Both the position numbers and the translations under genes were made by a program. From an uncultured Peptoniphilaceae bacterium (lineage in GTDB: Bacteria; Bacillota; Clostridia; Tissierellales; Peptoniphilaceae): a stretch of 64,000 nt of DNA. The stretch's first letter is position 1. The number at the start of each line of letters is the position of its first letter. The notes below the pieces were generated by a model. That model saw only the letters and a program-made list of their open reading frames with translations, ran no database searches and was not told the origin of the DNA. This document shows, piece by piece, positions 5,086-47,286 of the stretch. The stretch is taken from positions 56,942-120,941 of the forward strand of contig CAYWTV010000002.1 of NCBI GenBank assembly GCA_964461305.1. The letters are read 5' to 3'.

Positions 5086-5086
5086 A

Positions 5087-5767: not shown

Positions 5768-6205
5768 GTGACTAGATTAGACAAAGCTTATGAGAAGCTT
5801 AGAGAAAAAGGCTATAAAACCACAGCACCAAGAAAAATATTATTAGATTTTTTAGATAAAGAAAATAATAAGCATTTATCTTGTGATGAAATATATGACA
5901 GAATATCAAAGGACCACCCAAACATTGGAATAGCAACAGTATATAGAAATATTCAATTGTTTGAAGAATTAAATATAACTACAAAACTCACACTAGATGA
6001 TGGAATTGGTAGATACGAATTATCTAATTTAGATGATAAAACCCACCAACACCATCACTTAGTATGTATTTCTTGTAACAAATTGATAGAAGTAAAGGAA
6101 GATTTACTCGGAGTATTAGAAAAGGAAATAGAAAATGAACACAATTTTGAAATTGTAGATCACGACTTGAAATTCTATGGCTACTGCGACGAGTGTAGAA
6201 AATAA
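5768..6205 (+). CDS. Fur family transcriptional regulator (Fur/PerR/Zur; subtype not resolvable)
   Basis: 145 aa. Winged-helix segment ATVYRNIQLFEE, a His cluster THQHHHLVC, and two CxxC pairs (CISC..., CDEC). GTG start. Confidence 0.85.
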   Translation: MTRLDKAYEKLREKGYKTTAPRKILLDFLDKENNKHLSCDEIYDRISKDHPNIGIATVYRNIQLFEELNITTKLTLDDGIGRYELSNLDDKTHQHHHLVCISCNKLIEVKEDLLGVLEKEIENEHNFEIVDHDLKFYGYCDECRK

Positions 6206-6216
6206 AGGGAGTAACA

Positions 6217-9757: not shown

Positions 9758-9758
9758 A

Positions 9759-10379
9759 ATGGGGAAAAGTGTAATAATAGGTATTTGTGGAGGTTCAGGT
9801 TCAGGAAAGTCAACAGTGGTAAAGGAATTATTAAGTAAAATTCCAGAAGACAAGGTGAGTATTTTAGAAGAGGATTCATACTACAAAGACCAAAGTCATC
9901 TATCCTTTGAAGAAAGATTAGCGACAGATTATGATCATCCTTCAGCCTTTGATCACGAGTTAATGATTTCCCATATATGTGACCTATTAGAGGGAAAACA
10001 TATATCAAAACCAATTTACGACTTTGAAGAAAATAACCGTACTAACAAAACTGTTCATATAGAGCCAAAAGACATTATTATCATAGAAGGTATAATGATT
10101 TTATTTGAAGAATCTGTAAGAAATTTGTTAGATATTAAAGTCTATGTAGATACAGATGCAGATGTTAGGATTGTTAGAAGAATCCTAAGGGATGTTAAGG
10201 AAAGAGGTAGAACTGTGGACTCTGTAATATTACAATACATGTCTAAAGTTAGACCTGCTCACATTCAATTTGTAGAACCATCCAAAAGATATGCAGATAT
10301 TATTATACCAGAAGGTGGCCATAACCAAGTGGCTATAGATTTATTAAGATCTAAAATTAACTCTATTATCAATCACTAA
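9759..10379 (+). CDS. udk: Uridine kinase
   Basis: 206 aa. P-loop [12 protein letters not shown], then YDHPSAFD and [12 protein letters not shown]. Confidence 0.93.
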
Positions 10380-10405
10380 TTATAGATAATATTTCTTTAG
10401 AAGTG

Positions 10406-10434
10406 TTGACAAAAGATGGATAATATGGTTTAAT
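10406..10434 (+). promoter_or_regulatory. Sigma-A-type promoter of the infC operon
   Basis: TTGACA (10406-10411), a 17-nt spacer, then TG-n-TTTAAT (extended -10, 10426-10434). Confidence 0.55.
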
Positions 10435-10435
10435 A

Positions 10436-10563
10436 TGTAAGGTAAGTTAAAAGTAGAAGTACCGCTTCTCACCTCGTGGCCAAGGCCTATAGGTTACAAT
10501 TAGTTATTTATGATAGTAATTTTTTGTGCGGGTACTTTTTGTATCCGCACATATTTTATTTCC
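10436..10563 (+). promoter_or_regulatory. L20-leader-type transcription attenuator upstream of infC-rpmI-rplT
   Basis: Terminator hairpin GTGCGGGTAC/GTATCCGCAC (10526-10550) followed by ATATTTTATTT. The upstream AGTACCGC (10459-10466) can alternatively pair with the terminator 5' arm. The position matches the Firmicute L20 leader. Confidence 0.6.
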
Positions 10564-10575
10564 GGGGGTGTAAAT

Positions 10576-11088
10576 ATAAAGGAATTAAAGATTAACGAGG
10601 ACATTAGGGATAAAGAAGTTAGATTGATTGACCAGCACGGTGAACAATTAGGAGTAATCCCAACAGCTAGAGCTCAAGAACTTGCTCATGAAGCTGAGTT
10701 AGATTTAGTGTGTGTATCGCCAAATGCAAAACCTGCAGTATGCAAGATTTTAGATTATGGAAAATACAGATACGATCAACTAAAAAAGGAAAAAGAAGCT
10801 AAAAAAGCTCAGAAACAAATTAACGTAAAAGAAGTTAGGATGACACCTAATATTGATACGCATGATTTAAATGTTAAAGCTAAACAGGCTGATAAATTCC
10901 TAACTGGGGGAGATAAAGTTAAAGTCTCAGTTAGATTCAGAGGAAGAGAAATGGGACATACAGACCAAGGTCGTGTGGTTTTAGATGAGTTTCTAGAAAT
11001 CCTTGGAGATAAAGCTACTGTTGATAAAAAACCAAAAATGGAAGGTAGGAATATGGTAATGCACCTTAATCCTACAAATGATAAATAG
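10576..11088 (+). CDS. infC: Translation initiation factor IF-3, probably starting at a non-AUG codon (ATA 10576)
   Basis: KINEDIRDKEVRLIDQHGEQLGV matches the IF-3 N-terminus. RBS GGGGGTG (10564-10570) lies 5 nt before ATA. The ORF-track ATG at 10510 lies inside the leader, upstream of the attenuator hairpin. Product is about 171 aa, typical for IF-3. Confidence 0.85.
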   Translation: MKELKINEDIRDKEVRLIDQHGEQLGVIPTARAQELAHEAELDLVCVSPNAKPAVCKILDYGKYRYDQLKKEKEAKKAQKQINVKEVRMTPNIDTHDLNVKAKQADKFLTGGDKVKVSVRFRGREMGHTDQGRVVLDEFLEILGDKATVDKKPKMEGRNMVMHLNPTNDK

Positions 11089-11100
11089 GAGGAATATATA

Positions 11101-11295
11101 ATGGGTAAAATGAAAACTCATAGAGGTTCCGCAAAAAGATTCAAAAGAACTGGAACTGGAAAATTAAAGAGAATGAAAACTGGCGTAACTCATATGACAG
11201 GGAAAATGTCTCCTAAAAGAATTAGAAATTTAAGAAAGAGCACACTTGTGAGTAAAGGCGATCAAAAGAGAATCGACCACATGATTCCAAGATAG
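11101..11295 (+). CDS. rpmI: 50S ribosomal protein L35
   Basis: 64 aa with [24 protein letters not shown] upstream. Confidence 0.95.
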
Positions 11296-11310
11296 TAGGA
11301 GGCGAAAGAA

Positions 11311-11667
11311 ATGGCAAGAATTAAAAGAGCAGTTAATGCTAGAAAAAAACATAAAAAAGTATTAAAACAAGCAAAGGGATATTTTGGATCAAAATCTAAA
11401 TTATTCAAAGTTGCAAACCAAGCTGTAATGAAATCTTTAAACTACGCTTATATAGGTAGAAAACAAAGAAAAAGAGATTTTAGAAAAATGTGGATTCAAA
11501 GAATCAACGCTGCAGCTCGTTTAAACGGCTTAAGCTATTCTAAATTTATCAACGGCTTAAAAAAAGCTAATGTAGATATTAACAGAAAAATGTTATCTGA
11601 AATTGCTATTCACGATGAAAAAGCATTCAGCCAATTAGTAGATTTAGCAAAAGAAAACTTAGCATAA
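11311..11667 (+). CDS. rplT: 50S ribosomal protein L20
   Basis: 118 aa with [19 protein letters not shown]...[17 protein letters not shown]. Confidence 0.96.
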
Positions 11668-11672
11668 AAATT

Positions 11673-11701
11673 AGACATATCAATTCGATATGTCTTTTTT
11701 A
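11673..11701. terminator. Intrinsic terminator after rplT (between convergent genes)
   Basis: AGACATATC/GATATGTCT stem, followed by TTTTTT. Confidence 0.75.
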
Positions 11702-11707
11702 TGGGGT

Positions 11708-12709
11708 TTATATCCAAGTTGAAATTTTAGTAATTAAGGTAAATATAAAAACTGCTGCTAGAGAAGCTGTTGTATTGTCGTGATCAAATCTTGGAGATAC
11801 TTCTGCCACATCAAAACTAACAGTTTTTTCACTATTTAATACATATTTTAATAAAATCATAACTAACTCTGGATCTAATCCTAATGGTTGAGGAGCACTT
11901 ACTCCAGGAGCTATACTAGAAGAAAATACGTCACAATCAAGGGTAATATACAAATGATCTATATTTCTTAAAAAAGCATCTATCTTTTCAAAAATAAGAT
12001 AAATATCACCATTGCTAATTTCTTTAGCCATTACATATTTAGTATTTGATTTATCAGCAAACTTAAATAAACTGACAGTATTAGCGTGATTTTGGATTCC
12101 CATAACAAAATAGTTATAATCGTCTCCAACTGATTTATTTAAATCATAGATTTGCCTAAACATAGTACCAGATGAGCCATTACCTTCTTCATATGGCCTG
12201 TTATCAAAATGTGCATCGAAATTAACAATTCCTATATTTGGCTTATCATTAGTATTTCGAAAATGCTCAAAGAGTCCTTTATAATGTCCAAAGACTATTT
12301 CATGACCTCCACCTAATAATATTGGAAAGTAGTTAAGTTCTAATAATTTTTGTACTGCAATTGACAAACTATTTTGAGCATCTTCTAAAGTAGTTTTGTT
12401 ACTAGATATATTTCCAGCATCAAATATTTTAACCTCTTTAGAAAAGTTGCAAGGTTTGTTAGCTAATTCTTTTCTTATAGCAGTAGGAGCCTTAAAGGCG
12501 CCTTGTCTACCTAGATTTTTAGCAATACCTATATCTGATTTAAACCCTAAAATTGCAAATCCCATCTTTCCCTTAAAGGGTTTTAGGTTTTTATCATTTA
12601 AATTAATTTTTTCTACCCATTGATGAAATCGAAATGCGTCAAAATCTTCTTTTGAATCTATTCTACCATTCCAAATACTCATATCTTGAACTTCATAATT
12701 TTTTATCAT
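11708..12709 (-). CDS. hutG: Formimidoylglutamase (arginase-fold ureohydrolase)
   Basis: 333 aa. N-terminal WNGRID...FRFHQW is typical of HutG. Arginase-fold metal motifs GGGHEI, NFDAHFD and TLDCDVF are present. Confidence 0.78.
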   Translation of the reverse strand: MIKNYEVQDMSIWNGRIDSKEDFDAFRFHQWVEKINLNDKNLKPFKGKMGFAILGFKSDIGIAKNLGRQGAFKAPTAIRKELANKPCNFSKEVKIFDAGNISSNKTTLEDAQNSLSIAVQKLLELNYFPILLGGGHEIVFGHYKGLFEHFRNTNDKPNIGIVNFDAHFDNRPYEEGNGSSGTMFRQIYDLNKSVGDDYNYFVMGIQNHANTVSLFKFADKSNTKYVMAKEISNGDIYLIFEKIDAFLRNIDHLYITLDCDVFSSSIAPGVSAPQPLGLDPELVMILLKYVLNSEKTVSFDVAEVSPRFDHDNTTASLAAVFIFTLITKISTWI

Positions 12710-25400: not shown

Positions 25401-27773
25401 TTACCTTATAACTTGTAAGAAATTCGCTTTTTCTTCGTAAATAACTGTGTTGTGTTTATTTAATACTTTTTTTAAGCTTCCAGTTAAATCTTCTTTATTG
25501 ACAATTATACCATAAAGATTATGAGCATTAAGAAAATCTACTAGTTCTTCTTCTGTATAATTTAAATTGGTGGTATTTAATATTATATTTTGAAATCCAT
25601 AAGCCTGAACGAAGTAAAACTCATCAAAGTTATGGATTTCAATAATGTGATCACTTGTACTTTCCTTAATTGCATATTTTAGCTTATTGTAAAACTCGTT
25701 ATCTTCTATTTTAGTTCTAAGTAATAAAACTGCATCTTCATTTTCCTCTAACCAAAGTGAAAGCTCCTCAGAACTAGTTTTATCTTTGTTATTTAGTACG
25801 ATGTTTTCTTCATTATCTAGTGTAATATCTATAGATATATAATCAGATTGGCTTAATAAAACCTTATCTAATTCTAAAATTGTATTTTCCTTTAACTTAA
25901 CTATATTTGAGTGTAGTGAAAGGGGAGGAATTTCTAAAACAGAAAATGCTTTACCATCTTCTAAAAGTGGCTTTAGAAGATTATTTTTCAGTATAAAATT
26001 TGAAAGATTTATATCTTTTATTGCATCTTCATAAATAGGCCTATATTCACTTAGGTCTAATCTCTCCCTAGTATTTCTATCTTCCACATAAGAACTTTCA
26101 AAAATTTCAGTACTTGCCATTGAAAATAAAACATTTTCGTCAATAAAGGAGCCTTTTCTCATTATGGTTTGAGGCTTAACGTTGTTATATCCATCAAAAT
26201 TTTCTAAATCCCTACCAAAAAATACTCCTTTTTGATTTTCATATCCTAAAATATTAAGTATTGTAGGTGCAAAATCAATTAGAGACCCAACTTTGTGGTT
26301 TGTGTATCCTATGTTGGTGTTTGGAACATTTATTATTAAAGGAACATTCATTATGTGATCAAAGTTGTATTTTTCACCTAAAAATTCACCCATTAATTTC
26401 ACATCATCAGGTGAAGAATTAGGAATGGCAAAATGGTCACCGTATAGTGCAAATACTGTATTATCGTATAATCCTTCTTCTTTTAAATTTTTCATAAATT
26501 CTCCGATACATTTATCTACATAGTGGATACTATTTAAATAATCACCTAAAATTGTATCTTCGTGTTCTTCAAGTAATTTTATCTCCTTGTATTTTTCAGG
26601 CATAGTAAATGGATTGTGACTTGATAATGTAATAATAAAGGCGTAGAAAGGATTTTCATCTTTAGAATCTAACTCCTTCAAATAGTCCATTGATTGATCA
26701 AAAAAATCTCCATCAGTAATTCCAAGTTCTATAACATCTCCCACATTAAAATCCTCTTGGGAAATATATCTTTGAAAACCTTGATTGTCATATGCTTTAT
26801 TTCTATTCCAGAAAGTTTTTTCATAGCCGTGAAAAACCCACGAACTATATCCATTATCCCTTAATATCCAAGGAAGTCCGTAGAAGGTATTATCTTGAAA
26901 CTGAGTGTAGGTAGGAGATTCCATGGAAGGATGTAAACTATTATTAGTTACAAATTCTGCATCAGAAGTATTTCCTCTTCCTATTAATTGAAAATAATTG
27001 TCATAATAAATAGAACCACTATCTTCTATAAAGGCATTTAAATTAGGTGTGATTTCCTGATTATTGTAATGAAGATTTATTACAAAATTTTGTAGTGCTT
27101 CAACCTGAAAAACAATTAGATTTTTTCCATTTCCTATACCAGTATTTGGTCCATTAATTATCTTAGTTCGATTTTTTAATTCTTCTATATCTCTTTCAGA
27201 ATAAATTGATGGCTGAGTAGATATGTTATATTCTTCACCTCGAATATTTTCTATAATATCCCTAGTATGATATGTATATAGTTCTTGATATCTTAAAGAA
27301 TTAAATAAACTATTTGAAAAACCGTAAAATAAAGTTGAAACAAATACTAACAAAAGTATTCCACCAGCAAATAATTTATCTTTATTTTCAAAAAAGTCAT
27401 TAGAGAATTTATATAGATAATAGTAAACAAAAGGAAGATCAATTAAAAATAACAGTGATCTCTTAGAAATTATCGAATAAACACTATTTTGTACATTTCC
27501 TAACATTCCCACCATTTCAAAGAGTTCTACAGATGGTAAAGTGTTAAAATAACTATAATAAATCACATCTATAAACATTATTAGAGAAAGAAAAGTATAA
27601 AATATTCCTAAATATATATTTCTTCTTTTTTTATTTAATAAACTCAATAAAACTACTATCCCCAATGATAAAGAAATGGTAGTTAAAAAAACTAAACACT
27701 GATTATGTACTGCATTTGTTAAACTTAAAAAAATAAGGGTCTTAATAACTAATAAAATAGATAAGACAATCAA
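25401..27773 (-). CDS. LTA synthase (LtaS)-family sulfatase-fold membrane protein with an extra C-terminal domain of about 180 aa
   Basis: 790 aa. N-terminal TM bundle, then the sulfatase/alkaline-phosphatase-fold ectodomain (QVEALQNF, GNTSDAEFVTNNSLHP, LSSHNPF, YGDHF). TTG start with RBS GAAGGTGA. Confidence 0.85.
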   Translation of the reverse strand: MIVLSILLVIKTLIFLSLTNAVHNQCLVFLTTISLSLGIVVLLSLLNKKRRNIYLGIFYTFLSLIMFIDVIYYSYFNTLPSVELFEMVGMLGNVQNSVYSIISKRSLLFLIDLPFVYYYLYKFSNDFFENKDKLFAGGILLLVFVSTLFYGFSNSLFNSLRYQELYTYHTRDIIENIRGEEYNISTQPSIYSERDIEELKNRTKIINGPNTGIGNGKNLIVFQVEALQNFVINLHYNNQEITPNLNAFIEDSGSIYYDNYFQLIGRGNTSDAEFVTNNSLHPSMESPTYTQFQDNTFYGLPWILRDNGYSSWVFHGYEKTFWNRNKAYDNQGFQRYISQEDFNVGDVIELGITDGDFFDQSMDYLKELDSKDENPFYAFIITLSSHNPFTMPEKYKEIKLLEEHEDTILGDYLNSIHYVDKCIGEFMKNLKEEGLYDNTVFALYGDHFAIPNSSPDDVKLMGEFLGEKYNFDHIMNVPLIINVPNTNIGYTNHKVGSLIDFAPTILNILGYENQKGVFFGRDLENFDGYNNVKPQTIMRKGSFIDENVLFSMASTEIFESSYVEDRNTRERLDLSEYRPIYEDAIKDINLSNFILKNNLLKPLLEDGKAFSVLEIPPLSLHSNIVKLKENTILELDKVLLSQSDYISIDITLDNEENIVLNNKDKTSSEELSLWLEENEDAVLLLRTKIEDNEFYNKLKYAIKESTSDHIIEIHNFDEFYFVQAYGFQNIILNTTNLNYTEEELVDFLNAHNLYGIIVNKEDLTGSLKKVLNKHNTVIYEEKANFLQVIR

Positions 27774-28005: not shown

Positions 28006-29832
28006 GTGATTTTAATATTTTTAATATTACTAAAAACAATATTGTTTATTCACAGTACAGAAATAGAACACAATATCTATTTGGTGTTTTTTGTGTCCAC
28101 TTCTTTTTCACTTTTAGTATTTTCTTGGATATATTCTTTAAAGACTAAAAAGAAGAGACTATTTATTGGGATTTACTATACAGTAGTGTCTTTAATTTTA
28201 TTTGGAGATGTTCTTTATTATTCTCATTTCCAATCTCTCCCATCTATATCCATATTGAAGGAGATAAAGTTGCTTCCAAATGTATCTTCAAGTGTAAAAA
28301 ATTTAATAGGTTTAAGAGAGATGTTATTTATAATTGATTTGCCTATAGTTTATTATTTTTTAAAAAATAAGTGTTCAGATATTGAAAGATACATTCCAAA
28401 GAAAACTAGAAAATTAATACCTGTAAGTGTAATAATGCTTTTGATGATTTTATTTTCTTATAGTGAAGCTTATGACCTTGACAACTCTTTAAAATATCAA
28501 GAGCCATATAGTTATCATTTTAATGATGCAAAGAGACAATTGTCTCAAGTAAGGGCAACAGGATTTGATATGAAAGAAAGTAGACTTGAAGATTTAATTT
28601 CTAGAGGGAAGTTAAAAGAAGGAAACTTTACAGGGATAGGTAAGGGTAAGAATCTTATTGTTATACAAGTAGAAGCCTTACAGGAATTTCCCATTGGCAT
28701 GATTTATAATAACCAAGAAATAACGCCGAATTTAAATAAATTAATTCAAAATGATTCTAGTATTTATTACAATAACTTTTATCAATTGACAGGTAGGGGA
28801 AATACTTCTGATGCAGAATTTGTAACTAATAACAGTTTGTATCCTGGAACTGATTCGCCATCTTATTCCCAATATGAAGAAAATACATTTTATGGTCTAC
28901 CGTGGATTATGAGAGATAATTATTATAGATCTCTTGCTTTTCACGGATTTGAAAAGGACTTTTGGAATAGAGATAATGCCTATAAATCTCAAGGCTTTGA
29001 GAGATTTTATTCCCAAGAAGATTTTAAATACAGAGAAAAATTAGGATTAGGGATAAAGGATAAAGATTTTTTTATACAATCTAGTGAAATTTTGGAAAGA
29101 TATTATAAAAATGATGAACCTTTTTATGCATTTATGGTAAGTTTATCAAGTCACGATCCCTTTATTATGCCTGAAAAATACAGAAAAATAGAACTTTTTG
29201 ACAAGCACAAGGATAATATTATTGGAGATTATTTAAATTCTATTAATTATTTTGATTACTCGTTAGGAATTTTTATAGATAATCTAAAGGAAATGGGGAT
29301 ATATGAAGATACAGTAATTGCTATATATGGAGATCATTTTGGAATAAAAGAAAGTAGTGAAACTGATTATTTAATGGATGAACTATTAAATAAAGATTAT
29401 AATTACGAAGATATAATGAAAGTACCACTAATAATTTCTGTTCCTGGAGAAAAAATAAACCACGTAAATAATAATATTGGATCACAGTTAGATTTTCTTC
29501 CTACTATATTAAATATTATGGGAATAGAAAACAACAAGGGGATTGTTTTTGGTAGAGATTTAGAAAATTATCAAGGTGACAATTTTGTAGCTCCACAATC
29601 TATTATGACGGAAGGATCATTTATAAATAAAGATATAATATTTTCAGTGCCTAAAACAAGAAAACTAGAAGATAGTGAAGTTAGAGATTTAAAGAATAAT
29701 AAGCACTTAAATCCACTAAGTTATAAATTAATTTATCAAGAAATTAATAGAGAAGTTGAAGAAAGTGAATTTATTCTAAAAAACAACTTAATGAAAGATA
29801 TTTTATCTAATAAAAATACTGACTCTCAATGA
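28006..29832 (+). CDS. LTA synthase (LtaS)-family sulfatase-fold membrane protein (paralog of 25401-27773)
   Basis: 608 aa with the same motif set (QVEALQEF, GNTSDAEFVTNNSLYP, LSSHDPF, YGDHF). GTG start with RBS GGAAGGAG. Confidence 0.87.
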   Translation: MILIFLILLKTILFIHSTEIEHNIYLVFFVSTSFSLLVFSWIYSLKTKKKRLFIGIYYTVVSLILFGDVLYYSHFQSLPSISILKEIKLLPNVSSSVKNLIGLREMLFIIDLPIVYYFLKNKCSDIERYIPKKTRKLIPVSVIMLLMILFSYSEAYDLDNSLKYQEPYSYHFNDAKRQLSQVRATGFDMKESRLEDLISRGKLKEGNFTGIGKGKNLIVIQVEALQEFPIGMIYNNQEITPNLNKLIQNDSSIYYNNFYQLTGRGNTSDAEFVTNNSLYPGTDSPSYSQYEENTFYGLPWIMRDNYYRSLAFHGFEKDFWNRDNAYKSQGFERFYSQEDFKYREKLGLGIKDKDFFIQSSEILERYYKNDEPFYAFMVSLSSHDPFIMPEKYRKIELFDKHKDNIIGDYLNSINYFDYSLGIFIDNLKEMGIYEDTVIAIYGDHFGIKESSETDYLMDELLNKDYNYEDIMKVPLIISVPGEKINHVNNNIGSQLDFLPTILNIMGIENNKGIVFGRDLENYQGDNFVAPQSIMTEGSFINKDIIFSVPKTRKLEDSEVRDLKNNKHLNPLSYKLIYQEINREVEESEFILKNNLMKDILSNKNTDSQ

Positions 29833-36551: not shown

Positions 36552-37028
36552 ATGAATATAGAATTTTTTAAAGAATTGTTTAAAAGAACAGGTTATGGAA
36601 TGGTCCAATTAATTAAAGGGATGGTGTTTTCTTCTGTTATAAATTTTGTGATTATTGCTATTGGATTAAAAATAGCTAATGTTCCTTATTATGGACTTAT
36701 TGCATTTGCAATAGCTATTGCAGATTTATTACCTGTATTAGGAGCGGGTATAGTATTAATACCTTGGGCTATTATTTCATTAGTCACTGGAGAGGTCTCT
36801 CAGGCAATCACTTTGGTGATTTTATATGTGATAACATTTTTTGTAAAACAAATCATAGAGCCTATAATATTAGGTAAAAGTATAGGTTTAAAACCATTAT
36901 ATACCTTAGGTATAACTGCTATTTCTATGATTATTTTGTCCCCAGCAGTTGGGGCTATAGTTGGTGCTATTATTTCAGTAGTTGTTGCAGCTTTTTTAAA
37001 TTTAAGAGATAGTAAAAGAGAAAACTAA
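36552..37028 (+). CDS. Half-size AI-2E/YtvI-like membrane protein (corresponds only to the C-terminal half of the family)
   Basis: 158 aa. IADLLPVLGAGIVLIPWAI...KQIIEPIILGKSIGLKPL matches the AI-2E C-terminal core. No N-terminal half lies upstream. Confidence 0.6.
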   Translation: MNIEFFKELFKRTGYGMVQLIKGMVFSSVINFVIIAIGLKIANVPYYGLIAFAIAIADLLPVLGAGIVLIPWAIISLVTGEVSQAITLVILYVITFFVKQIIEPIILGKSIGLKPLYTLGITAISMIILSPAVGAIVGAIISVVVAAFLNLRDSKREN

Positions 37029-37078: not shown

Positions 37079-37092
37079 TTATAGGTATAAAA

Positions 37093-37329
37093 CTGTGAAC
37101 AGAAGAGTAAATTATATTGTAAATTTAAGCGAGTCGATTATGGTGTAAGTTCGATATGGAGATATAATTGAAAAACATCTGGGAGTTTCTAACTGAAATT
37201 ATAGTAGGATTAGAAGTTATTTGCACTTTACGCAAAATATAATTAAGTGGATTATCTATTTAGATAATCAATTTGGGTGGTACCGCGAAATTTAAACCTT
37301 CGTCCCTTTGTGGAAATGAAGGTTTTTTT
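37093..37329 (+). promoter_or_regulatory. T-box riboswitch leader; the specifier reads as AAC (Asn)
   Basis: Stem I has a K-turn/GA motif (GTGAACAGAAGAGTA), AG-bulge-like AGCGAG and distal-loop TGGTGTAAG. The specifier-loop 3' strand is GAAAAACA (37170-37177), closed by the CAGA/TCTG helix. The canonical T-box AATTTGGGTGGTACCGCG lies at 37270-37287. The terminator is AAACCTTC...GAAGGTTT plus T7 (37294-37329). Confidence 0.88.
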
Positions 37330-37352
37330 ATATTTAAAAAAGGAGTGAGATT

Positions 37353-39461
37353 GTGAAAAAAGACTATACAAGGAGTCATTATTGTGGAAGAATATCAGAA
37401 TCTGATATAGATACGAGTGTAACTGCAATGGGCTGGGTTCATACTAATAGAGATATGGGCGGAATTATTTTTATAGATTTAAGAGATAAATCTGGTATTT
37501 TGCAAGTGGTTTTTGATTCTAAGGATTTTTCAGAAGAAGAATTTTCTGAAATAGAAGGACTTAGAAATGAATATGTAATAGCAGTTTCAGGAAATATAAG
37601 GGAAAGAGATGAGGAAACTTACAATCCTAAAATTCCAACTGGAACAGTAGAATTAAAAGCAAAAGATTTTAAAGTTTTATCTAAGTCTAAAACTCTTCCA
37701 TTTCCAATAGATGACAATGTGGATGTTAGAGAAGATTTAAGAATGAAACATAGATACTTGGATTTGAGACGTCCAAAAATGTACAAAAACTTCTTACTTC
37801 GTAACAATACTTTAAGAAGTATTAGAAGATTTTTAGAAGATAATGAATTTATGGAAGTGGAAACTCCTATACTAACTAAAAGTACACCAGAAGGAGCTAG
37901 AGATTATCTAGTACCTAGTAGAGTTCACCAAGGAGAATTTTACGCCCTACCTCAGTCTCCCCAAATATTTAAACAATTACTAATGGTATCGGGCTTTGAT
38001 AAATATTACCAAGTTGCCAGATGCTTTAGAGATGAAGATTTAAGGGCAGACAGACAACCTGAGTTTACTCAAATAGATATGGAAACTTCATTTTTATCTC
38101 AAGAAGAAATTCTAAATTATTTAGAAAAATTATTCAAAAACGTATTTAAAGAAGTAATGGGAATAGATTTTAAAGAGCCTTTCCCAAGGATGACCTATCA
38201 AGAAGCAATGGACAATTACGGATCAGATAAACCTGATATTAGATTTGGCCTTAAAATAGTAGATGTAACTGAAGAGATAAGATCATCTAGCTTTAAGGTT
38301 TTCACTGATACTTTAAAATTAGATGATGGAAGTGTTAGAGCTATTAATATTAAAGGTGGTAATGCCTTTACAAGAACTGAAATCGAAGATATGACTGAGT
38401 ATGCTATCTCCCAGGGTGCTAAGGGAATGGCTTGGATTGCAATAGACAATGATGGCAATTTAAGAACTATTTTAACTAAATACTTCTCAGAAGAAGATAT
38501 GACAAAGTTATTAGAAAAAATGGAAGCTAAACCTGGAGATTTAATAATTTTTTCTGCTGATAAATTAGAAGTAGTTTACAAAACATTAGGAAACTTAAGG
38601 CTTTATGTTGGAGATAAATTAGGTCTTAGGAAAAAAGACGACTATAAATTCTTGATGGTAGTAGATTTTCCTCAATTTGAATATTCTGAAGAAGAAGATA
38701 GATACGTAGCTATGCATCATCCTTTTACTATGCCAGTAGAAGAAGACATTCAGTATTTAGAGTCTGATCCATTAAAGGTAAGAGCTCAATCTTACGATGT
38801 GGTACTAAATGGTATAGAGCTTGGAAGTGGTAGTTTAAGAATTTATAGAAGTGATATCCAAGAGAAGATGTTTAAGCTCCTAGGTATTAGCGACGAAGAA
38901 ATTCAAAGACGTTTTGGATTTATTATTGAAGCTTTCCAATACGGTACTCCACCACACGGAGGATTTGCATTTGGTTTAGATAGATTAATAATGTTAATGG
39001 CAAAAGAAGATAGTATCAGGGAAGTAATAGCATTTCCTAAAAATAGAGATGCTCAATGTCTTTTATCAGAAGCTCCAAGTACTGTAGATGATTCTCAACT
39101 TGAAGATTTAGGAATTGGAATAGTTGGAGAAAATGGTTTTATTAAAGAATCTAAATCAGTTAAAGAAGTAGCTACTGAAAAATTAGAAGATATTAAGAGC
39201 TATGCAGATATGTCTATGTTAAATATTGATGAAGTAAATGAAGTTAGATTTAAAACCTATATTAATGACTTTATAGATTTAACAAAAACTTTAAGAGAAC
39301 TTGATTTAACAGAGTATGAGCCTACAGTAAATATTCACCCAGTTGACAATACATTTAGAAAAGATATTGTACAAGAAGAATTTTCAAGGGATGAATTATT
39401 AGGAAGTTCTTATACTGACGAGACAGGACATATATTAGTTCCTCGATTAATTGAAGATTAG
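37353..39461 (+). CDS. aspS: Aspartate--tRNA ligase (bacterial type, likely non-discriminating) with a C-terminal GatC-like domain fused in frame
   Basis: 702 aa. The AspRS body carries motif 2 FRDEDLRADRQPEFTQIDME and motif 3 GGFAFGLDRLIMLM. Residues about 607-702 (nt 39171-39458) align with GatC (LDLTEYEPTVNIHPVDNTFRKD, ETGHILVPRLIED). GTG start with RBS AGGAG. Confidence 0.9.
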   Translation: MKKDYTRSHYCGRISESDIDTSVTAMGWVHTNRDMGGIIFIDLRDKSGILQVVFDSKDFSEEEFSEIEGLRNEYVIAVSGNIRERDEETYNPKIPTGTVELKAKDFKVLSKSKTLPFPIDDNVDVREDLRMKHRYLDLRRPKMYKNFLLRNNTLRSIRRFLEDNEFMEVETPILTKSTPEGARDYLVPSRVHQGEFYALPQSPQIFKQLLMVSGFDKYYQVARCFRDEDLRADRQPEFTQIDMETSFLSQEEILNYLEKLFKNVFKEVMGIDFKEPFPRMTYQEAMDNYGSDKPDIRFGLKIVDVTEEIRSSSFKVFTDTLKLDDGSVRAINIKGGNAFTRTEIEDMTEYAISQGAKGMAWIAIDNDGNLRTILTKYFSEEDMTKLLEKMEAKPGDLIIFSADKLEVVYKTLGNLRLYVGDKLGLRKKDDYKFLMVVDFPQFEYSEEEDRYVAMHHPFTMPVEEDIQYLESDPLKVRAQSYDVVLNGIELGSGSLRIYRSDIQEKMFKLLGISDEEIQRRFGFIIEAFQYGTPPHGGFAFGLDRLIMLMAKEDSIREVIAFPKNRDAQCLLSEAPSTVDDSQLEDLGIGIVGENGFIKESKSVKEVATEKLEDIKSYADMSMLNIDEVNEVRFKTYINDFIDLTKTLRELDLTEYEPTVNIHPVDNTFRKDIVQEEFSRDELLGSSYTDETGHILVPRLIED

Positions 39462-39475: not shown

Positions 39476-40657
39476 ATGACATTACAAGAAAGATTTAAAA
39501 ACTACTTTGATAAAGTGGAAAAAGAAAATACCGAGACTCCTTTTTATAAAACATTAAGGAGAGATGAAGCATTAAAAGAATTTTCAGAAAATGAAAATGC
39601 CTTTGGAATAGTTTTATCAGATAGTATTTCTACTAAAGATGTAAAAACTACAGCGAATTCAAAAATGTTAGAAAATTACGTTCCAGCATTTGATGCAACA
39701 GTAGCGAAAAAATTAAAAGATGCAGGTGGAGTTTTACTAGGAAAAACTATAACTTTAGAATTTGGAGTTGGGGAAGCTGAAACGACTTTTGGTACTAATA
39801 TTGCAGTTGATAAAGGCGAGGATATTATAGGACTGACTATAGATTCTAAAGGTTTTATGCATTTAGGAGCATTTGAATTTGGCCTAAAAGCATTTACACC
39901 AACTTTCGGTTTAGTTTCAAGATACGGTCTTTTAGTAGTTGCATCATCAATAGATAGAATTGGTATATTAGCTAAGGATTTTAAAGAAATTCAAAAGGCT
40001 ACATCTATAATAGTTGGAAAAGATGAAAAAGACTCTTTATCTATAGAATCAACTGATGATTTTAAGGATTTAGAAGACTTAAATTTATCTAAATTAACAG
40101 TAGCAAAGTTAGATAAATTTGGTCATTTTGTTGAAGAAGCTGAATTTTTAGAAAGCTTAAATATAAATGTAGAAGAAAAAACCGTTTCGAATTTAGAATA
40201 CTCTTTACCAACTTATGAAATACTTTCTAGTGGAGAGTTTGCAACTAATATGGAAAAATATGACTCAATAGGATTTGGCCATAGAACAAATAGTTATTCC
40301 AGTTTAGATGAATTATATAAAAACTCCAGAACTGAAGGATTTGGAAGAGGCGTACAAGAAAAAATTGTATTTGGAAACTTTGTTTTAAGTGAAAACCAAT
40401 ATGAAAATTATTATGTTCAAGCTATGAAAGCAAGAACTTTAATTAGAGATAGTTTTTATAAGGTTTTAGAAGATACTGAATTTTTAATTGCACCTATTAG
40501 TTTATATTATACAGCAGGAATTAATTTATCAGGACTTCCTTCTATTTCTATACCTTATGGCAATGAGGGGATACTAATAACTACTAGGGCATTTAACGAC
40601 AAGAGATTATTAAGCTTTGCTAAAGAGCTAATAAAAGAAATGGACGGTGAAAAATAA
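39476..40657 (+). CDS. GatA-like amidase-fold protein lacking the catalytic triad (predicted glutaminase-inactive)
   Basis: 393 aa, collinear with GatA (TTANSKMLENYVPAFDATV, VSRYGL, ASSIDRIG, SRTEGFG, NLSGLPSISIP). IKDN is replaced by LSDS. The PGGSSGGSAAAVA segment is deleted (about 20 aa). DTGGSIR is replaced by DSKGFMH. Confidence 0.8.
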   Translation: MTLQERFKNYFDKVEKENTETPFYKTLRRDEALKEFSENENAFGIVLSDSISTKDVKTTANSKMLENYVPAFDATVAKKLKDAGGVLLGKTITLEFGVGEAETTFGTNIAVDKGEDIIGLTIDSKGFMHLGAFEFGLKAFTPTFGLVSRYGLLVVASSIDRIGILAKDFKEIQKATSIIVGKDEKDSLSIESTDDFKDLEDLNLSKLTVAKLDKFGHFVEEAEFLESLNINVEEKTVSNLEYSLPTYEILSSGEFATNMEKYDSIGFGHRTNSYSSLDELYKNSRTEGFGRGVQEKIVFGNFVLSENQYENYYVQAMKARTLIRDSFYKVLEDTEFLIAPISLYYTAGINLSGLPSISIPYGNEGILITTRAFNDKRLLSFAKELIKEMDGEK

Positions 40658-42081
40658 TGGCTAAAAATTATGAAACTGTCATGGGATTAGAAGTCCATGT
40701 GGAATTAAAAACTAATACAAAAATATTTTGTAATTGTTCAACAGAATTTGGTGGAGATCCTAACGAACACACCTGTCCTGTTTGTCTAGGTCTTCCAGGA
40801 GCATTACCAGTACTAAATGAAAAAGCTAAAGACTATGCAGTTATGGCTGGACTTGCAACAAATTGTGAAATTACAAGAAGGGGAAAACAAGATAGAAAAA
40901 ACTATTTTTATCCTGATTTAGGTAAAGGATATCAAATTTCCCAAGGAGATAATCCAATTTGTTATAACGGTTATTTAGATATTGAAACTTCAGAAGGTAA
41001 AAAAAGAATCAGAATTAACAGAATTCATCTAGAAGAAGATGCTGGAAAGTTAGTTCATGCTGAAGGGATAGGAAGCTTAGTAGATAATAACAGATCAAGT
41101 ATGCCCCTTGTGGAAATAGTTTCTGAACCAGATTTAAGATCTGCAGAAGAAGTTATAGCATATTTACAAAAACTTCGAGCTAACTTAACATACATTGACG
41201 TTTCAGATGCAAAAATGAACGAAGGATCTTTTAGATGTGATGTTAACTTATCAGTTAGAGAAAAAGGCTCTGATATTTTAGGAACTAGAGTAGAAATGAA
41301 AAACTTAAACTCTTTTCAATCAATTCAAAGGGCAATTGAATTCGAAGCAAATAGACAAATAAAAGCTATTGAAAATGGAGAAGAATTGTTCCAAGAAACT
41401 AGAGGGTATAATCAAGATCAAAAGAGGACATTTTCTATGAGAAGAAAAGAAAATGCCACAGATTACAGATATATGCCTGATCCTGATTTAATGCCAATTG
41501 TAGTTACAGATGAGGATATAAAAAGAATAAAAGAGTCTCTTCCAGAACTGCCAGATGCAAGAAAAGAAAGATACGTTGAAGAATACGAACTATCTAACTA
41601 CGATGCTGAAAAACTAATTTCATCAATAGAAGTTGCAAACTTTTTTGAAGAAGCAGCTAAAACTGGTGCGGATCCTAAAACTCTTGCAAATATAATAACT
41701 ACTGATATTTTTAGACTTACAAGTCCTGAAGATTTTAATGTGAATTTTGAAGCTTCTAAATTAGGAGAAATAGTTCAATATATTGAAGAAGGTAGAATAA
41801 ACCTTAGTAGTGCTAAGAAAATAATTGAAACTCTCTTTGAAGATAATACTAAATCTCCAGAGGAGATAATTTCAGAACAGGATTTAGAACAAATTAACGA
41901 TGAAAATCTCTTATCAGAAATCATTGATGAGGTATTAGTTAAAAATCAAAAGGCTGTTGAAGAGTATAAATCTGGAAAGGAAAAGGCAATTCAATCTATA
42001 ATTGGTCAAATTATGGGAAAAACTAAAGGAAAAGCCAACCCTTCTTTGACAATAGATATTATAAAGAAAAAAATCAAATAA
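40657..42081 (+). CDS. gatB: Asp-tRNA(Asn)/Glu-tRNA(Gln) amidotransferase subunit B
   Basis: 474 aa with GLEVHVELKT, CPVCLGLPGALPVLN, DRKNYFYPDLGKGYQISQ, HLEEDAGK and a YqeY-like tail. The start overlaps the upstream stop (TAATG). Confidence 0.95.
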   Translation: MAKNYETVMGLEVHVELKTNTKIFCNCSTEFGGDPNEHTCPVCLGLPGALPVLNEKAKDYAVMAGLATNCEITRRGKQDRKNYFYPDLGKGYQISQGDNPICYNGYLDIETSEGKKRIRINRIHLEEDAGKLVHAEGIGSLVDNNRSSMPLVEIVSEPDLRSAEEVIAYLQKLRANLTYIDVSDAKMNEGSFRCDVNLSVREKGSDILGTRVEMKNLNSFQSIQRAIEFEANRQIKAIENGEELFQETRGYNQDQKRTFSMRRKENATDYRYMPDPDLMPIVVTDEDIKRIKESLPELPDARKERYVEEYELSNYDAEKLISSIEVANFFEEAAKTGADPKTLANIITTDIFRLTSPEDFNVNFEASKLGEIVQYIEEGRINLSSAKKIIETLFEDNTKSPEEIISEQDLEQINDENLLSEIIDEVLVKNQKAVEEYKSGKEKAIQSIIGQIMGKTKGKANPSLTIDIIKKKIK

Positions 42082-42091: not shown

Positions 42092-42130
42092 AATAGTAGT
42101 TTTAGTAAGCCTAGAACTACTATTGTGTTT
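42092..42130 (+). terminator. Intrinsic terminator after gatB
   Basis: 14-bp stem AATAGTAGTTTTAG / CTAGAACTACTATT, then GTGTTTT. Confidence 0.7.
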
Positions 42131-42229: not shown

Positions 42230-44641
42230 ATGAAAGAATATAATCACAAAGAAGTAGAGAAAAAGTGGCAAGAAAAGTGGGACAATGAAAAAACTTTTCA
42301 CTGTGAAATAGATACATCAAAGGAAAAATTCTATGCATTAGTAGAATTTCCATATCCATCAGGAGACGGGCTCCATGTAGGTCACGCAAGACCGTATACG
42401 GCACTAGACATTATATCCAGGAAGAAAAGATTAGAAGGTTATAATGTATTGTATCCTATGGGATGGGATGCTTTTGGATTGCCTACGGAAAACTATGCCA
42501 TAAAAACAGGAATACATCCTAAAATAGTTACTAAAAAAAATGTTGCTAATTTCAAATCCCAATTAAAATCAATCGGTTTTTCCTTTGATTGGGACAGGGA
42601 AATTAATACTACAGATCCAGAGTATTATAAATGGACACAGTGGATATTTATAAAACTCTTTGAAAAAGGTTTAGCTTATAAAAAGGAAATGCCAATAAAT
42701 TGGTGCCCATCTTGTTTAGTTGGTCTTGCAAATGAAGAGGTTATTCAAGGAACCTGTGAAAGATGTGGTTCTGAAGTAGAGCAAAAAGTTAGAAGTCAGT
42801 GGATGCTTTCTATTACTAAATATGCAGATAGATTGTTAAATGATTTGTCTGAGGTAGATTATTTTAATAGAATTAAAGCTCAACAAGAAAACTGGATTGG
42901 AAAATCAGTTGGGGCAGAACTTGAATTTAAAATTAAGGACAAAGAAGATTCTTTAAAGGTATTTACTACTAGACCAGATACAATTTATGGAGCAACTTAT
43001 ATGGTAATAGCTCCAGAACACGATATTATAAATAAATATTCTCATATTATAAAAAATGTGGACGAAATAGAAGAATATAAACACAAAGCATCTCACCTTT
43101 CTGAATTTGAAAGAACAGAACTTGTAAAAGAAAAAACAGGTGTTGAAATCCAAGGTTTAAAGGCTATTAATCCATTTAATCAAAAGGAAATGCCAATTTG
43201 GATATCAGACTATGTACTTTCCACTTATGGAACTGGAGCTATTATGGCAGTACCAGGTCATGACGAAAGGGACTACGAATTTGCTAAAAAGTTTAATTTA
43301 GAAATTATACAAGTTGTTGATGGAGGAGATATTAAGGAAAGTGCTTATACTGATATTGAATCTGGAAAGATGATAAATTCTGATATATTAAATGGACTAT
43401 CCGTTCAAGATGCTATAGATAAAGCAATTGAATATGCTGTTGAGAATAATTTTGGAAAAAAACAAATCAACTTTAAGTTAAGAGACTGGGTATTTTCTAG
43501 ACAAAGATATTGGGGAGAACCAATTCCAATTGTTCATTGCGAAGAATGTGGATATGTTCCAGTTCCTGAAAGTGAATTACCTTTAACTTTACCTGAGGTT
43601 GAAACTTACGAACCATCAAAAGACGGTAGTTCTCCACTTTCTAAAATGGACGATTGGGTAAATACAACTTGTCCAAAATGTAATAAACCAGCTAAAAGAG
43701 AAACCGACACTATGCCTCAATGGGCAGGTTCTTCTTGGTATTTTATGAGATATATTGATCCTCACAATGATAATGAATTAGCCTCAAAGGATGCACTAGA
43801 TTATTGGTTAAGTGTAGATTGGTATAATGGAGGAATGGAACATACAACTCTTCATTTACTTTATTCTAGATTTTGGTATAAGTTTTTATACGATATTGGA
43901 GTTGCTCCTACGAAAGAACCTTATAAAAAAAGAACATCCCACGGTATGATTTTAGGTTCTGATGGTGGAAAAATGAGTAAATCCAGAGGAAATGTATTAA
44001 ATCCAAACGATATTGTAGATGAATATGGAGCTGATACCTTAAGAACTTATGAAATGTTTATGGGAGACTTTGAAAAAAGTGCGCCATGGTCTACAGAAAG
44101 TTTAATAGGCACTAGGAGATTTTTAGATAGAGTTTGGAATTTACAAAATATTTTAGTTCCTGGAGATGAATATTCAAAGGAATTTGAAGTTGATTTTCAT
44201 CAAAGTATTAAAAAGGTAACTGAAGATTATGAATCTTTAAAATTTAATACTGCAATTGCTCAACTAATGACTTTGCAAAATCTTTTGAATAAAAAAGGAG
44301 AAGTAAATCATAAAGAGTTTAAAACTTATTTAACTTTATTAAATCCTGTAGCACCACATATTACAGAAGAAATATGGAGCTTAAATGATTTTGAAGGAGA
44401 AATATCTTCTCAAAAATGGCCTGAATATATAGAAGAAAAAACAAAAAGAGATGAAGTGGAATATCCAGTTCAACTTAATGGTAAGGTTAAAATGAAAATT
44501 ACTGCTCCAAGGAATGCAACCCAAGAAGAAGTAAAAAAATTAGTTTACAACTCTGATGAGGGTAAGGAATTATTCAAAGGAAAAGAAATAATAAAAGAAA
44601 TATTTGTACCTGGTAAAATATTCAATGTAGTGGTAAAATAA
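42230..44641 (+). CDS. leuS: Leucine--tRNA ligase
   Basis: 803 aa with the HIGH-type [14 protein letters not shown] and the CP1 editing domain. Confidence 0.97.
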
Positions 44642-44730: not shown

Positions 44731-47286
44731 ATGAAAAAACAGTATATTGTTGACGGAATGACTTGTGCTTCATGTGTAAGTGCGGTTGAAAAATCCGTGT
44801 CGAAAATTGACGGAGTGGATTCCGTTGAAGTAAATTTATTGACTAAATCCATGGCAGTAGATTTTGATGAGTCAAAAACTGATAATATAGATATACTTAA
44901 TGCAGTAAAAAAAGCTGGTTACAAGGCTAAATCAAAGGAAGAAAACGTAGAAAACAAATCTAGTTTAGATAATACAGATATTTATAAAGAAGAATTAGAA
45001 GACAAATCCTTTAGATTAAAGGTATCAATAGGATTATTAATTCCTTTAATGTATATATCAATGGGACCTATGATTGGAATACCAATTCCTGGATTTTTAG
45101 ACGGAATGGATAACTCTTTAATGAATATATTTGTTCAATTACTATTAACTACACCTATTTTAATAGTAAATAGAGCATATTTTACAAATGGGTTCAAATC
45201 ACTTTTAAATAAAACTCCAAATATGGATTCACTAATCGCTATTGGTAGTGGAGCCAGTTATCTTTATGGAATTTATGTCATTATGATGTTGATTATAGGA
45301 TTTAGAGATCAAAATACAGAATTAATACATTCCTATCACCATGAAGTTTATTTTGAATCGGCAGCGACAATACTTACTTTAATTACTTTAGGTAAGTATT
45401 TTGAGGCAAAATCAAAAAGAAGAACATCAAATGCTATTACTAAACTTATGGACTTAGCTCCAAAAAAAGCTAGGGTATTAAGAGACAATAGTGAAGTAGA
45501 AATAGATGTATCTGAAATAGTACTTGGAGATATAGTCGTTGTTAGACCTGGAGAGAGAATTCCTGCTGATGGAATCGTAGTAAATGGGTCTAGCTCAGTA
45601 GATCAATCTATATTAACAGGAGAGAGTATACCTGTTACTAAAGAAGTGGGAGATGAAGTGTTTACCGCCACTATAAACAATAACGGATCTATTAATATTG
45701 AAGTAAATAAATCCCAAGAAAACTCTACTCTTTCTCAAATTATAAAATTAGTAGAAAACGCAAGTGCATCAAAGGCCCCAATATCCAAATTAGCAGATAA
45801 AATCGCAGGGGTATTCGTACCTATTGTCATAGTTATTGCAATATTAACTGGAGTTTATTGGACATATATGGGTGCTGGTTTTGAATTTGCTATGACTATG
45901 GCAGTGGCAGTATTAGTAATTTCTTGTCCTTGTGCTTTAGGTTTAGCTACACCTGTTGCCATAATGGTAGGTACTGGTAAAGGAGCGAATTTTGGAGTTT
46001 TAATAAAATCAGCTGAAACTTTAGAAACTCTAGATAAAATAGATACTATAGTTTTAGATAAAACTGGAACTATAACTCATGGTAAGCCATTTGTAACAGA
46101 TATTATATCTATAAAGGCTACTGTAGAACAATTAATAAACTTAGCTTATGCAATGGAAGTAAAATCTGAACATCCACTAGCTGAAGCAATAGTAAATAGT
46201 ACTAAAGAAACTAAGACTTATGATCTTGAAACTGAAAATTTTGAAGCTATACCTGGAGTTGGAATAAAAACTACAATTAGTGGAAAAGAATATTATGCAG
46301 GAAATAAAAAAATATTAGACAAATTGAATATACATTCGCCAAAAGTTGAAGAAGAATCTAATAGATTAGCAAAAGAAGGAAAAACTCCAATGTATTTTGC
46401 AGATAAAGATTCTATATTAGGAATTATAGCTGCTGCTGATGTAGTTAAACCTACAAGTAAAGAAGCTATAAAGAAATTACAAGATGAAGGATTAAAAGTT
46501 ATTATGTTAACTGGAGATAATGAGTTAACTGCAAAATCCATCGCTAGAGAAATTGGAATTAAATATGTAATTGCCGATGTTTTACCTCAAAACAAAGAAG
46601 AGGCAATTAATAAAGTCCAAGGAGATGGTGAAAAAGTAATAATGGTAGGAGATGGAATTAACGATGCTCCAGCTCTTGCTAAATCAGATATAGGTATTGC
46701 CATTGGTGCAGGAACTGATGTTGCCATCGAATCTGCTGATGTAGTATTAATGAAAAATAATTTATTAGATGTATCTAATGCAATAAACTTAGGAAAAGCT
46801 ACAATGAAAAATATCAAACAAAATTTATTTTGGGCATTTTTCTATAATGTATTGGGAATACCAATAGCTGCAGGATTATTCTACACAGCTTTTGGAGTTA
46901 GAATGTCTCCTATGATAGCTGCTGGTGCAATGAGTTTAAGTTCACTTTTTGTAGTTGGAAATGCTCTTAGACTTAATAACTTTAAACCATTTGAAACAAA
47001 CACTATAGACCAAGTGGACAATTCAGATATTCACATTGAGAAAAAATCTTTAGATGCAGATTATAAGGATAAAAAAATAATTTCTAAAGAAATTGATATT
47101 TCTGGAATGACTTGTAATCATTGTGTTTCAAGGGTAGAAGAAGCACTTAATTCTTTAGATGGAGTAAATTCTAAGGTGGATTTAGAAAATAATAAAGCCT
47201 ATATTAAATCTAGTATAGATTATGACAATAAAACTTTAATAGATGTTATAAAAGACGCTGGATATGAAGTAGTAAATATTCATTAA
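44731..47286 (+). CDS. copA: Copper-translocating P1B-type ATPase with both N-terminal and C-terminal HMA domains
   Basis: 851 aa with GMTCASC (N-terminal HMA), CPC in TM6, [13 protein letters not shown], and a second HMA GMTCNHC at residues about 784-851. Confidence 0.93.

Follow-up and report, generated by a model that had tools for sequence, protein, structure and literature searches.

In textbook accounts, the amidotransferase GatCAB joins a glutaminase to a tRNA-dependent kinase/transamidase by way of an ammonia tunnel, and catalysis by its GatA subunit is treated as essential. Here we describe a gat operon whose GatA homologue has the glutaminase site removed. The operon lies in a 64-kb stretch of DNA (64,000 nucleotides; the window) from an uncultured Peptoniphilaceae bacterium, on contig CAYWTV010000002.1. 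It has four parts: a T-box leader with an Asn specifier, an aspartyl-tRNA synthetase fused to GatC (AspRS-GatC), the GatA homologue (GatA′) and GatB. The gatA′ gene (39476..40657, + strand) starts with ATG and encodes 393 amino acids (aa). The protein, a putative pseudo-glutaminase, is without Lys79, cis-Ser154, Ser178 and Asp425; these residue numbers, like those of Tyr309 and Arg358 below, follow S. aureus GatA.

The locus shares with canonical bacterial GatCAB systems (S. aureus, 2DF4/3IP4; A. aeolicus, 3H0L; P. aeruginosa Asn-transamidosome, 4WJ3) the same three components in the same gene order. The model of GatA′ has the GatA fold, with template modelling (TM) scores of 0.87-0.88, and GatB is fully conserved. 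In contrast to the canonical systems, GatA′ is ~90 aa shorter and lacks the triad, the Gly/Ser loop and Asp425, and GatC forms a C-terminal domain on AspRS. By analogy, the operon product would work like GatCAB within an Asn-transamidosome.

A T-box-controlled aspS-gatCAB module for tRNA-dependent Asn synthesis has reportedly been described in Clostridium acetobutylicum (Saad et al. 2012, J Biol Chem 287:20382). The comparison made here is with the title of that paper as cited in PMC4206432. One of the three aspS genes of C. acetobutylicum is T-box regulated (PMC2494555). Judged by the title, the module resembles the window operon in that a T-box governs amidotransferase genes and an additional AspRS gene of a Clostridia-type organism, for the supply of Asn-tRNA(Asn). 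The title carries no indication of a catalytically reduced GatA or a fused GatC. AspRS followed by GatC in one protein is also the layout of NCBIfam NF009460 / PRK12820, ‘bifunctional aspartyl-tRNA synthetase / amidotransferase subunit C’. However, the window AspRS-GatC scored 657 bits against a cut-off of 1379 for this model and represents a different fusion lineage. The family name is silent on a degenerate GatA partner.

Other relatives of GatA have left its usual role. Tse8, a GatA-like type VI secretion toxin of Pseudomonas aeruginosa, reportedly acts by occupying the place of GatA in the transamidosome and not by amidase catalysis. Unlike this toxin, which is secreted and antagonises the complex in a different cell, GatA′ is co-encoded and co-regulated with its own GatC and GatB, and its gene overlaps gatB. 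The ‘vestigial’ GatA/GatC-like complex AtzE-AtzG of s-triazine catabolism (PDB 6C62/6C6G), judged by its PDB titles, likewise keeps a GatA-derived amidase with a GatC-like helper, suggesting that GatA and GatC can stay paired after their original function is lost. AtzE has left tRNA metabolism as an active amidase, whereas GatA′ has lost catalysis and would still be in the tRNA pathway. In archaeal GatDE, a GatB-type kinase/transamidase is fed by a non-GatA partner, the GatB half being indifferent to the source of ammonia (PMC2330236). GatD, however, is an active asparaginase-type glutaminase, and no GatD-like gene occurs in the window. The AspRS-GatC fusion already has a curated model, and a T-box-run Asn module has reportedly been described. 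What appears to be new is a natural triad-less GatA in a gat operon: the literature that we searched, with some relevant papers out of reach, described no pseudo-GatA, no natural triad-less GatA and no natural ammonia-dependent GatCAB.

Loss of the glutaminase site in GatA′

The gatA′ gene carries the Shine-Dalgarno sequence AGGAAGGAG 8 nucleotides (nt) 5′ of its ATG. Its product belongs to the Pfam Amidase family (PF01425, 148.7 bits, cut-off 27, E = 3.4e-43), and its best solved-structure matches by phmmer were the GatA chains 3h0l_A, 2df4_A, 3al0_A, 4wj3_A and 3kfu_E. The best NCBIfam model was TIGR00132 gatA, at 245.8 bits. Because this is half of the equivalog cut-off of 481.1, GatA′ falls outside the GatA equivalog by curated criteria. 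The gene is encoded together with gatC and gatB, the GatC domain (the AspRS tail) lying 14 nt 5′ and gatB overlapping the stop codon, and this arrangement is kept in 13 genomes. The members of this 393-aa family are 49-99% identical to GatA′.

The catalytic features that define the amidase signature, the Ser-cisSer-Lys triad and GGSSGGS, are absent from GatA′. An earlier note on this DNA had claimed as much from a manual alignment to canonical GatA. We compared the active site in phmmer alignments to 3h0l_A, 2df4_A and 3al0_A and in MAFFT alignments with canonical GatAs; counting the Foldseek structure matches described below, three alignment methods agreed. Codon 39617-39619 (TCA) encodes Ser48 within VLSDS, which aligns with I-K-D-N-I at the catalytic Lys79. 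Codon 39854-39856 (TTT) encodes Phe127 within DSKGFMH, which aligns with D-T-G-G-S-I-R at the nucleophile Ser178. Opposite P-G-G-S-S-G-G-S there is an alignment gap, so that the loop bearing cis-Ser154 is deleted. The spacing given in the earlier note was also correct, with 56 residues between K90 and V147 of GatA′ and 76 between K121 and V198 of S. aureus GatA. All of the flanking motifs that it had named (FGLVSRYGL, ASSIDRIG, SRTEGFG and NLSGLPSISIP among them) are retained. Neither the profile alignment nor the structure-based alignments placed Lys, Ser and Ser at the catalytic positions.

The changes extend to glutamine binding. The Gln-binding Asp425 falls inside a second deletion of ~20 aa in the phmmer and MAFFT alignments, and Arg358 is replaced by Lys296, which is invariant across the 393-aa family; the substrate roles of Arg358 and Asp425 are taken from PMC4027206. 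Tyr309 is retained in the window protein, and the corresponding residue in the family of 13 is Tyr in six members and His in six. With Arg358 changed to Lys and both Asp425 and the triad lost, the sequence of GatA′ no longer has the set of features for glutamine binding and hydrolysis, although Tyr309 is still there. The catalytic-site losses recur in every member of the family, all of which are 387-395 aa long. Among 61 canonical GatAs, 127 columns show conservation of 90% or more. In the family, 57 of these are kept, 57 substituted and 13 deleted, and the lost columns concentrate around the active site. GatA′ is a GatA-fold protein with the glutaminase site removed.

A site altered to this extent might have acquired a new activity or ligand, such as other hydrolase chemistry or a role as a sensor or regulatory subunit gating GatB. 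Such a gain would suit the 28 positions that are invariant in the 393-aa family and rare in canonical GatA (N61, G97, G131, A256, M259, Q294, K296, Q315 and D375 among them), and also the K125-G126-x-x-H129 motif that stands in place of T-G-G-S-I-R. However, neither catalytic position has settled on one replacement: F, L, S, D, Y or E stands where the nucleophile was, and S, A, D or C where the Lys was. The oxyanion/cis-Ser loop is deleted outright, no Ser, Cys or Thr is conserved as a nucleophile, and the intermediate forms differ again. We therefore consider a newly gained function quite improbable.

Predicted fold and selection on gatA′

An AlphaFold2 model of GatA′, built from a 44-sequence alignment, had a mean predicted local distance difference test score (pLDDT) of 90.5 and a predicted TM score (pTM) of 0.91. 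The top ten Foldseek matches of the model in the PDB were all GatA chains. The best six had TMq values of 0.87-0.88 (E = 1e-29 to 2e-27), and the rest 0.78-0.83. GatA′ is thus predicted to adopt the three-dimensional fold of GatA.

The reading frame 39476-40657 is uninterrupted over 393 codons and overlaps gatB by a TAATG at 40657, as the earlier note had read it. Orthologous frames of 387-395 codons are intact in at least 13 species-level genomes, at loci of 30-61% GC, and no frameshifts or stops were found in the 13 genomes, so the orthologues show no decay. Selection was estimated by the Nei-Gojobori method (NG86) from unsaturated pairs (dS 0.4-0.8). The ratio of nonsynonymous to synonymous substitution rates (dN/dS) was 0.11-0.24 for gatA′ across orthologues, and 0.108 between the window gene and its nearest relative (80% identity). 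The partners gave lower values, 0.07-0.09 for AspRS-GatC and 0.04-0.075 for GatB, the lowest in the operon. The GatA/GatB p-distance ratio was 1.69 in the degenerate family versus 0.89 in 19 canonical fusion operons. Overall, GatA′ evolved ~1.7-2.0 times faster than its partners, compared with a ratio of ~0.9-1.0 in the 19 operons with a normal GatA. The raised rate ratio together with the low dN/dS indicates that constraint on GatA′ is relaxed, yet far from lost.

The gatA′ sequence is nucleotide-identical across five independent Logan metagenome assemblies, so it is no assembly artefact. The same five assemblies show zero polymorphisms in the gene and hence offer nothing for the corresponding polymorphism ratio (pN/pS).

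That gatA′ might be a plain pseudogene, an artefact of sequencing or assembly, or a misalignment masking an intact triad is suggested by the halved TIGR00132 score and by the NCBI labels on its relatives, which read ‘amidase family protein’ or ‘hypothetical protein’. This idea has almost no probability left, and we count it as already refuted by the intact frames in at least 13 genomes, the dN/dS of 0.11-0.24, the confident predicted fold, the five identical assemblies, the conserved overlap with gatB and the agreement of three alignment methods. Taken together, the missing catalytic residues, the dN/dS, the intact orthologues and the confident GatA-fold model support the proposal of the earlier note that GatA′ is a pseudo-glutaminase kept for its fold and not for catalysis. 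The same proposal included selection on the interfaces of GatA′. This is suggested by context, namely the fused GatC upstream and the start/stop overlap with gatB.

The operon, its control and its relatives

The first gene of the operon (37353..39461, + strand) starts with GTG after an AAGGAG Shine-Dalgarno sequence and encodes the 702-aa AspRS-GatC. A bacterial-type AspRS occupies aa 1-590 (NF001750, aspartate--tRNA ligase, 861.7 bits), and the C-terminal GatC domain extends over ~aa 611-701 (nt ~39183-39458). The domain matches TIGR00135 gatC over aa 611-701 (51.5 bits, cut-off 47.1) and PF02686 over aa 630-696. The fusion has 699-702 codons in all 13 family genomes. GatC is present in the operon solely as the AspRS tail, with no free gatC gene.

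The gene for GatB (40657..42081, + strand) encodes a full-length kinase/transamidase subunit with a YqeY tail. It scored 641.8 bits on NF004012 (cut-off 338), matched PF02934 and PF02637, and retains 112 of 121 columns in which canonical GatB shows conservation of 90% or more. Judged by these matches, GatB is predicted to be an intact kinase/transamidase with its tRNA-binding tail. Where GatA is degenerate, its GatB partner shows recurrent changes at otherwise conserved positions: R250G (14 of 16), D252S/N, D436E and I9M. These may represent co-adaptation to the altered GatA.

The C-terminal G-G/D-E-K of GatA′ (window 40640-40660) coincides with the gatB Shine-Dalgarno sequence GGTGAAAAATAATG. 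We had considered these conserved residues as a functional tail, and dropped this in favour of the simpler explanation by the ribosome-binding signal. Their conservation probably acts at the nucleotide level.

Upstream of AspRS-GatC lies a T-box leader (37086..37310, + strand; Rfam RF00230, 125.6 bits, gathering score 93, E = 1.9e-27). The specifier codon in the Stem I specifier loop is AAC (Asn), within GAAA-AAC-A at ~37169-37176. AAC and the following purine are invariant in eight aligned orthologous leaders, and the flanking bases vary. A reading of the specifier as ACA/ACG (Thr) was rejected, since the next base would then be U/A/C and not the conserved purine. It is also disfavoured by the stem register CAGA/UCUG, which places AAC and the purine at the loop end. 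The leader has an intrinsic terminator (37294..37336, + strand), read by eye as the hairpin AAACCTTC...GAAGGTTT with a T run behind it. This terminator, which a simple terminator scan did not list, shares sequence with the antiterminator on the latter's 3′ side and is followed by the AspRS start codon. The leader thus has the covariance score, the specifier loop and the terminator of a T-box. The operon closes with a terminator-like hairpin (42092..42124, + strand), a pattern match from a consensus scan, ahead of leuS (42230..44641).

An Asn (AAC) T-box was found in the window, in the degenerate loci L001, L002, L008, L009 and L011-L016, and in the canonical fusion operons L021 and L066. In locus L005, where the T-box is absent, the promoter region contains a near-perfect direct repeat (7627-7880; caaattacttt[t/c]acaaattgagatg). 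With an Asn-specifier T-box, the operon would be switched on by uncharged tRNA(Asn) and would therefore form an inducible Asn-tRNA(Asn) unit. Control of an AspRS gene by tRNA(Asn), and not by tRNA(Asp), implies that a second AspRS exists elsewhere in the genome. The GatC fusion and the Asn T-box together imply that this AspRS would charge tRNA(Asn) too, as a non-discriminating enzyme.

These features also bear on whether amidation itself has been abandoned, with AspRS alone being needed and GatA′ and GatB serving as tRNA-binding or chaperone-like accessories that would, for example, sequester Asp-tRNA(Asn). Loss of the ammonia-producing site would be the expected outcome in such a case. However, GatB keeps its 112 conserved columns, its 642 bits on the equivalog model and a dN/dS of 0.04-0.075, and a T-box with an Asn specifier is sensible only if the product relieves uncharged tRNA(Asn). 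Abandoned amidation therefore seems to us very doubtful.

An AspRS-GatC fusion followed by a canonical GatA (IKDNI, GGSSGGS, DTGGSIR) is common in Clostridia. In a neighbour-joining tree of AspRS and GatB, all degenerate-GatA operons formed one clade in 200 of 200 bootstraps, nested within a broader set of fusion operons whose GatA is normal. The 393-aa family was a sub-clade with 100% bootstrap support. Its sister group is less reduced: L014 retains the Lys and is without the loop and the nucleophile, and L015, L016 and L013 are without all three triad residues. One degenerate clade with less reduced sister forms fits a single old loss of the glutaminase site in the fusion-operon lineage, followed by trimming, with the gene kept intact since then under purifying selection.

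The record of L015 (CABMKH010000005.1) is titled Varibaculum timonense (Actinomycetota). Its locus has 33.5% GC, and its AspRS-GatC operon clusters with loci labelled Tissierellaceae and Epulonipiscium; on the grounds of GC content and clade placement, the organism name is probably wrong.

A profile search over 1.84 billion cluster representatives, of which the 148 nearest were aligned, showed how far such proteins are spread. The 393-aa family is a single 50% cluster, and at least one triad residue is absent in 56 of the 148 nearest 50%-cluster representatives. We inspected the contigs of six of these 56. Three of them belong to the fusion clade (L081, L083 and L085/86). The other three lie in unrelated gat operons: L082, L084 (24% GC) and L087/88, where AspRS and GatC are encoded separately. 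The GatA-like genes of L082, L084 (453-1673) and L087 (6001-7164) are shortened to 387-414 aa and triad-less, so that at least three of the 56 stand in unrelated gatC-gatA′-gatB operons. The GatB proteins of these operons are only 39-49% identical to that of the window. Thus, triad-less GatAs appear to be kept in other, apparently unrelated gat operons.

Partial triad damage was also seen in full-length GatAs unlinked to AspRS, in L046 (~9887-11347; MALSDNI / GGSCGGA / DACGSVR) and in L064 of Caldicoprobacter oshimai DSM 21659 (~9944-11353; FGVEDNI / GGASAGA / DTGGSLR).

The neighbours of the operon in the window are two LtaS paralogues, RqcH/FbpA, a phosphatase, PepF, an unknown 764-aa protein, an AI-2E fragment, LeuRS, CopA and MurA. 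The AI-2E fragment is a 158-aa open reading frame (36552-37028) that starts 120 nt after the previous gene; its match to the YtvI / AI-2E transporter family is confined to the C-terminal half (profile 195-337 of 341). Since the same short form occurs in five other assemblies, it is a stable truncated form. The CopA-type copper P-type ATPase (44731-47286) has CopZ/HMA-like domains at both its N terminus (aa 2-67) and its C terminus (aa 787-847). The two LtaS-like paralogues, of the lipoteichoic acid synthase family, are divergently transcribed (25401-27773, - strand; 28006-29832, + strand), and neither comes near the equivalog cut-off. Ahead of the reading frame 10510-11088 lies a ribosomal protein L20 leader (10445-10562; RF00558, 73 bits).

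Possible function and source of ammonia

We lean towards a reading in which GatA′ serves, without catalysis of its own, as a scaffold subunit in an inducible module for Asn-tRNA(Asn) that is fed by free ammonia. Uncharged tRNA(Asn) would act on the T-box to permit transcription of the operon, and the AspRS part of the fusion would load Asp onto tRNA(Asn). The GatC tail would clamp GatA′ to GatB, as free GatC does in canonical GatCAB. Because this tail is covalently attached to AspRS, each synthetase subunit would carry its own amidotransferase, forming a built-in transamidosome. GatB would then phosphorylate and amidate Asp-tRNA(Asn). GatA′ would yield no ammonia in this scheme. It might be retained as a structural partner for the folding and assembly of GatC and GatB, and, through the fusion of GatC to AspRS, as the physical link that ties GatB to the synthetase. 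The ammonia tunnel might also open to the outside through GatA′, whose active-site lid is deleted. Free NH3/NH4+ would provide the amide nitrogen, and is presumably abundant in the amino-acid-fermenting, digester and gut habitats of the metagenome-assembled genomes (MAGs) that carry the operon. Several of these MAG names point to anaerobic digesters and guts, which we take to be ammonia-rich.

Published work on the canonical enzymes is consistent with such a role. GatA requires GatC for folding and for binding GatB, and a 30 Å tunnel joins the two active sites (PMC2330236). In yeast GatFAB, 20 mM NH4Cl bypasses the glutaminase step, and a destabilised glutaminase site raised NH4Cl-driven transamidation (PMC4027206). 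Since NH4Cl replaces glutamine in vitro, a free-ammonia route is chemically plausible.

A scaffold role for GatA′ could also be combined with ammonia delivered by another enzyme: a canonical GatA encoded elsewhere, an asparaginase or GatD-like protein, or a docking or nearby glutaminase. The Tissierellaceae MAG of L016 offers some support. There, a canonical ligA-gatC-gatA-gatB stands directly upstream of a T-box(Asn)-AspRS-GatC-GatA′-GatB′ operon (2160-12600) whose GatA′ is degenerate and 413 aa long, so normal and glutaminase-dead amidotransferases can coexist. If a canonical GatA had replaced GatA′ in the complex, however, GatA′ should decay, and the dN/dS shows no such decay. Tblastn found no second GatA-like or GatB gene in the 64-kb window beyond one of each, and no AsnRS-like (asparaginyl-tRNA synthetase) paralogue lies within it. 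With the canonical GatA of L016 as query, all the GatAs returned were of Tissierellaceae type and could not be linked to the carrier MAGs.

Support for another donor also comes from genes of the PF00710 asparaginase family directly upstream of AspRS-gat operons at three unrelated loci, L015 (6460-7446), L063 (6463-7422) and L087/88 (2568-3620 in L087; 1577-2629 in L088). Archaeal GatDE draws its ammonia from GatD, a protein of the asparaginase type (PMC2330236), and the copy in L015 has matches to GatD models that stay below the cut-offs (186-196 bits). The upstream gene could be an alternative ammonia donor, or its position could reflect mere clustering of Asn metabolism. It is not specific to triad loss, because it also stands beside a canonical GatA in L063. 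Moreover, no glutaminase- or asparaginase-like gene adjoins the operon or occurs elsewhere in the 64-kb window, and none was found in the flanks of L001-L014 (up to 10 kb per side). On balance, we judge delivery of ammonia by another enzyme to be unlikely.

Several points nevertheless weigh against the free-ammonia scaffold that we prefer. A working GatA elsewhere in the window genome may supply ammonia or pair with GatB. Six members of a sub-clade of the 393-aa family (L003-L007 and L010) have no T-box upstream of AspRS-GatC. The use of free ammonia by the complex is suggested only by the missing donor site, and the scaffold and open-tunnel roles of GatA′ are putative.

A GatA without its catalytic triad would surprise a specialist, and the dependence on ammonia proposed here is directly testable. 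Experiments look feasible, since the carrier of L015 is recorded as an isolate genome. For annotation, the current labels of such proteins, GatA, ‘amidase family protein’ or ‘hypothetical’, would lead metabolic reconstructions to wrongly assume glutamine dependence. This clade keeps a GatA minus its catalytic and substrate-binding residues beside partners under strong selection, and so the structural and chemical roles of GatA would be separated in nature and not only in mutants. It may offer a natural system for studying how ammonia enters the tunnel, why GatB needs GatA and GatC, and whether nitrogen-rich habitats favour the loss of glutamine-dependent steps. The fullest form of our proposal, which we hold tentatively and at a little less than an even chance, is a naturally ammonia-dependent amidotransferase in which AspRS-GatC nucleates a permanent transamidosome and the gutted site of GatA′ serves as the solvent entrance of the tunnel. 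If this is true, the glutaminase half of GatCAB, usually deemed indispensable, would be dispensable in ammonia-rich anaerobic niches.

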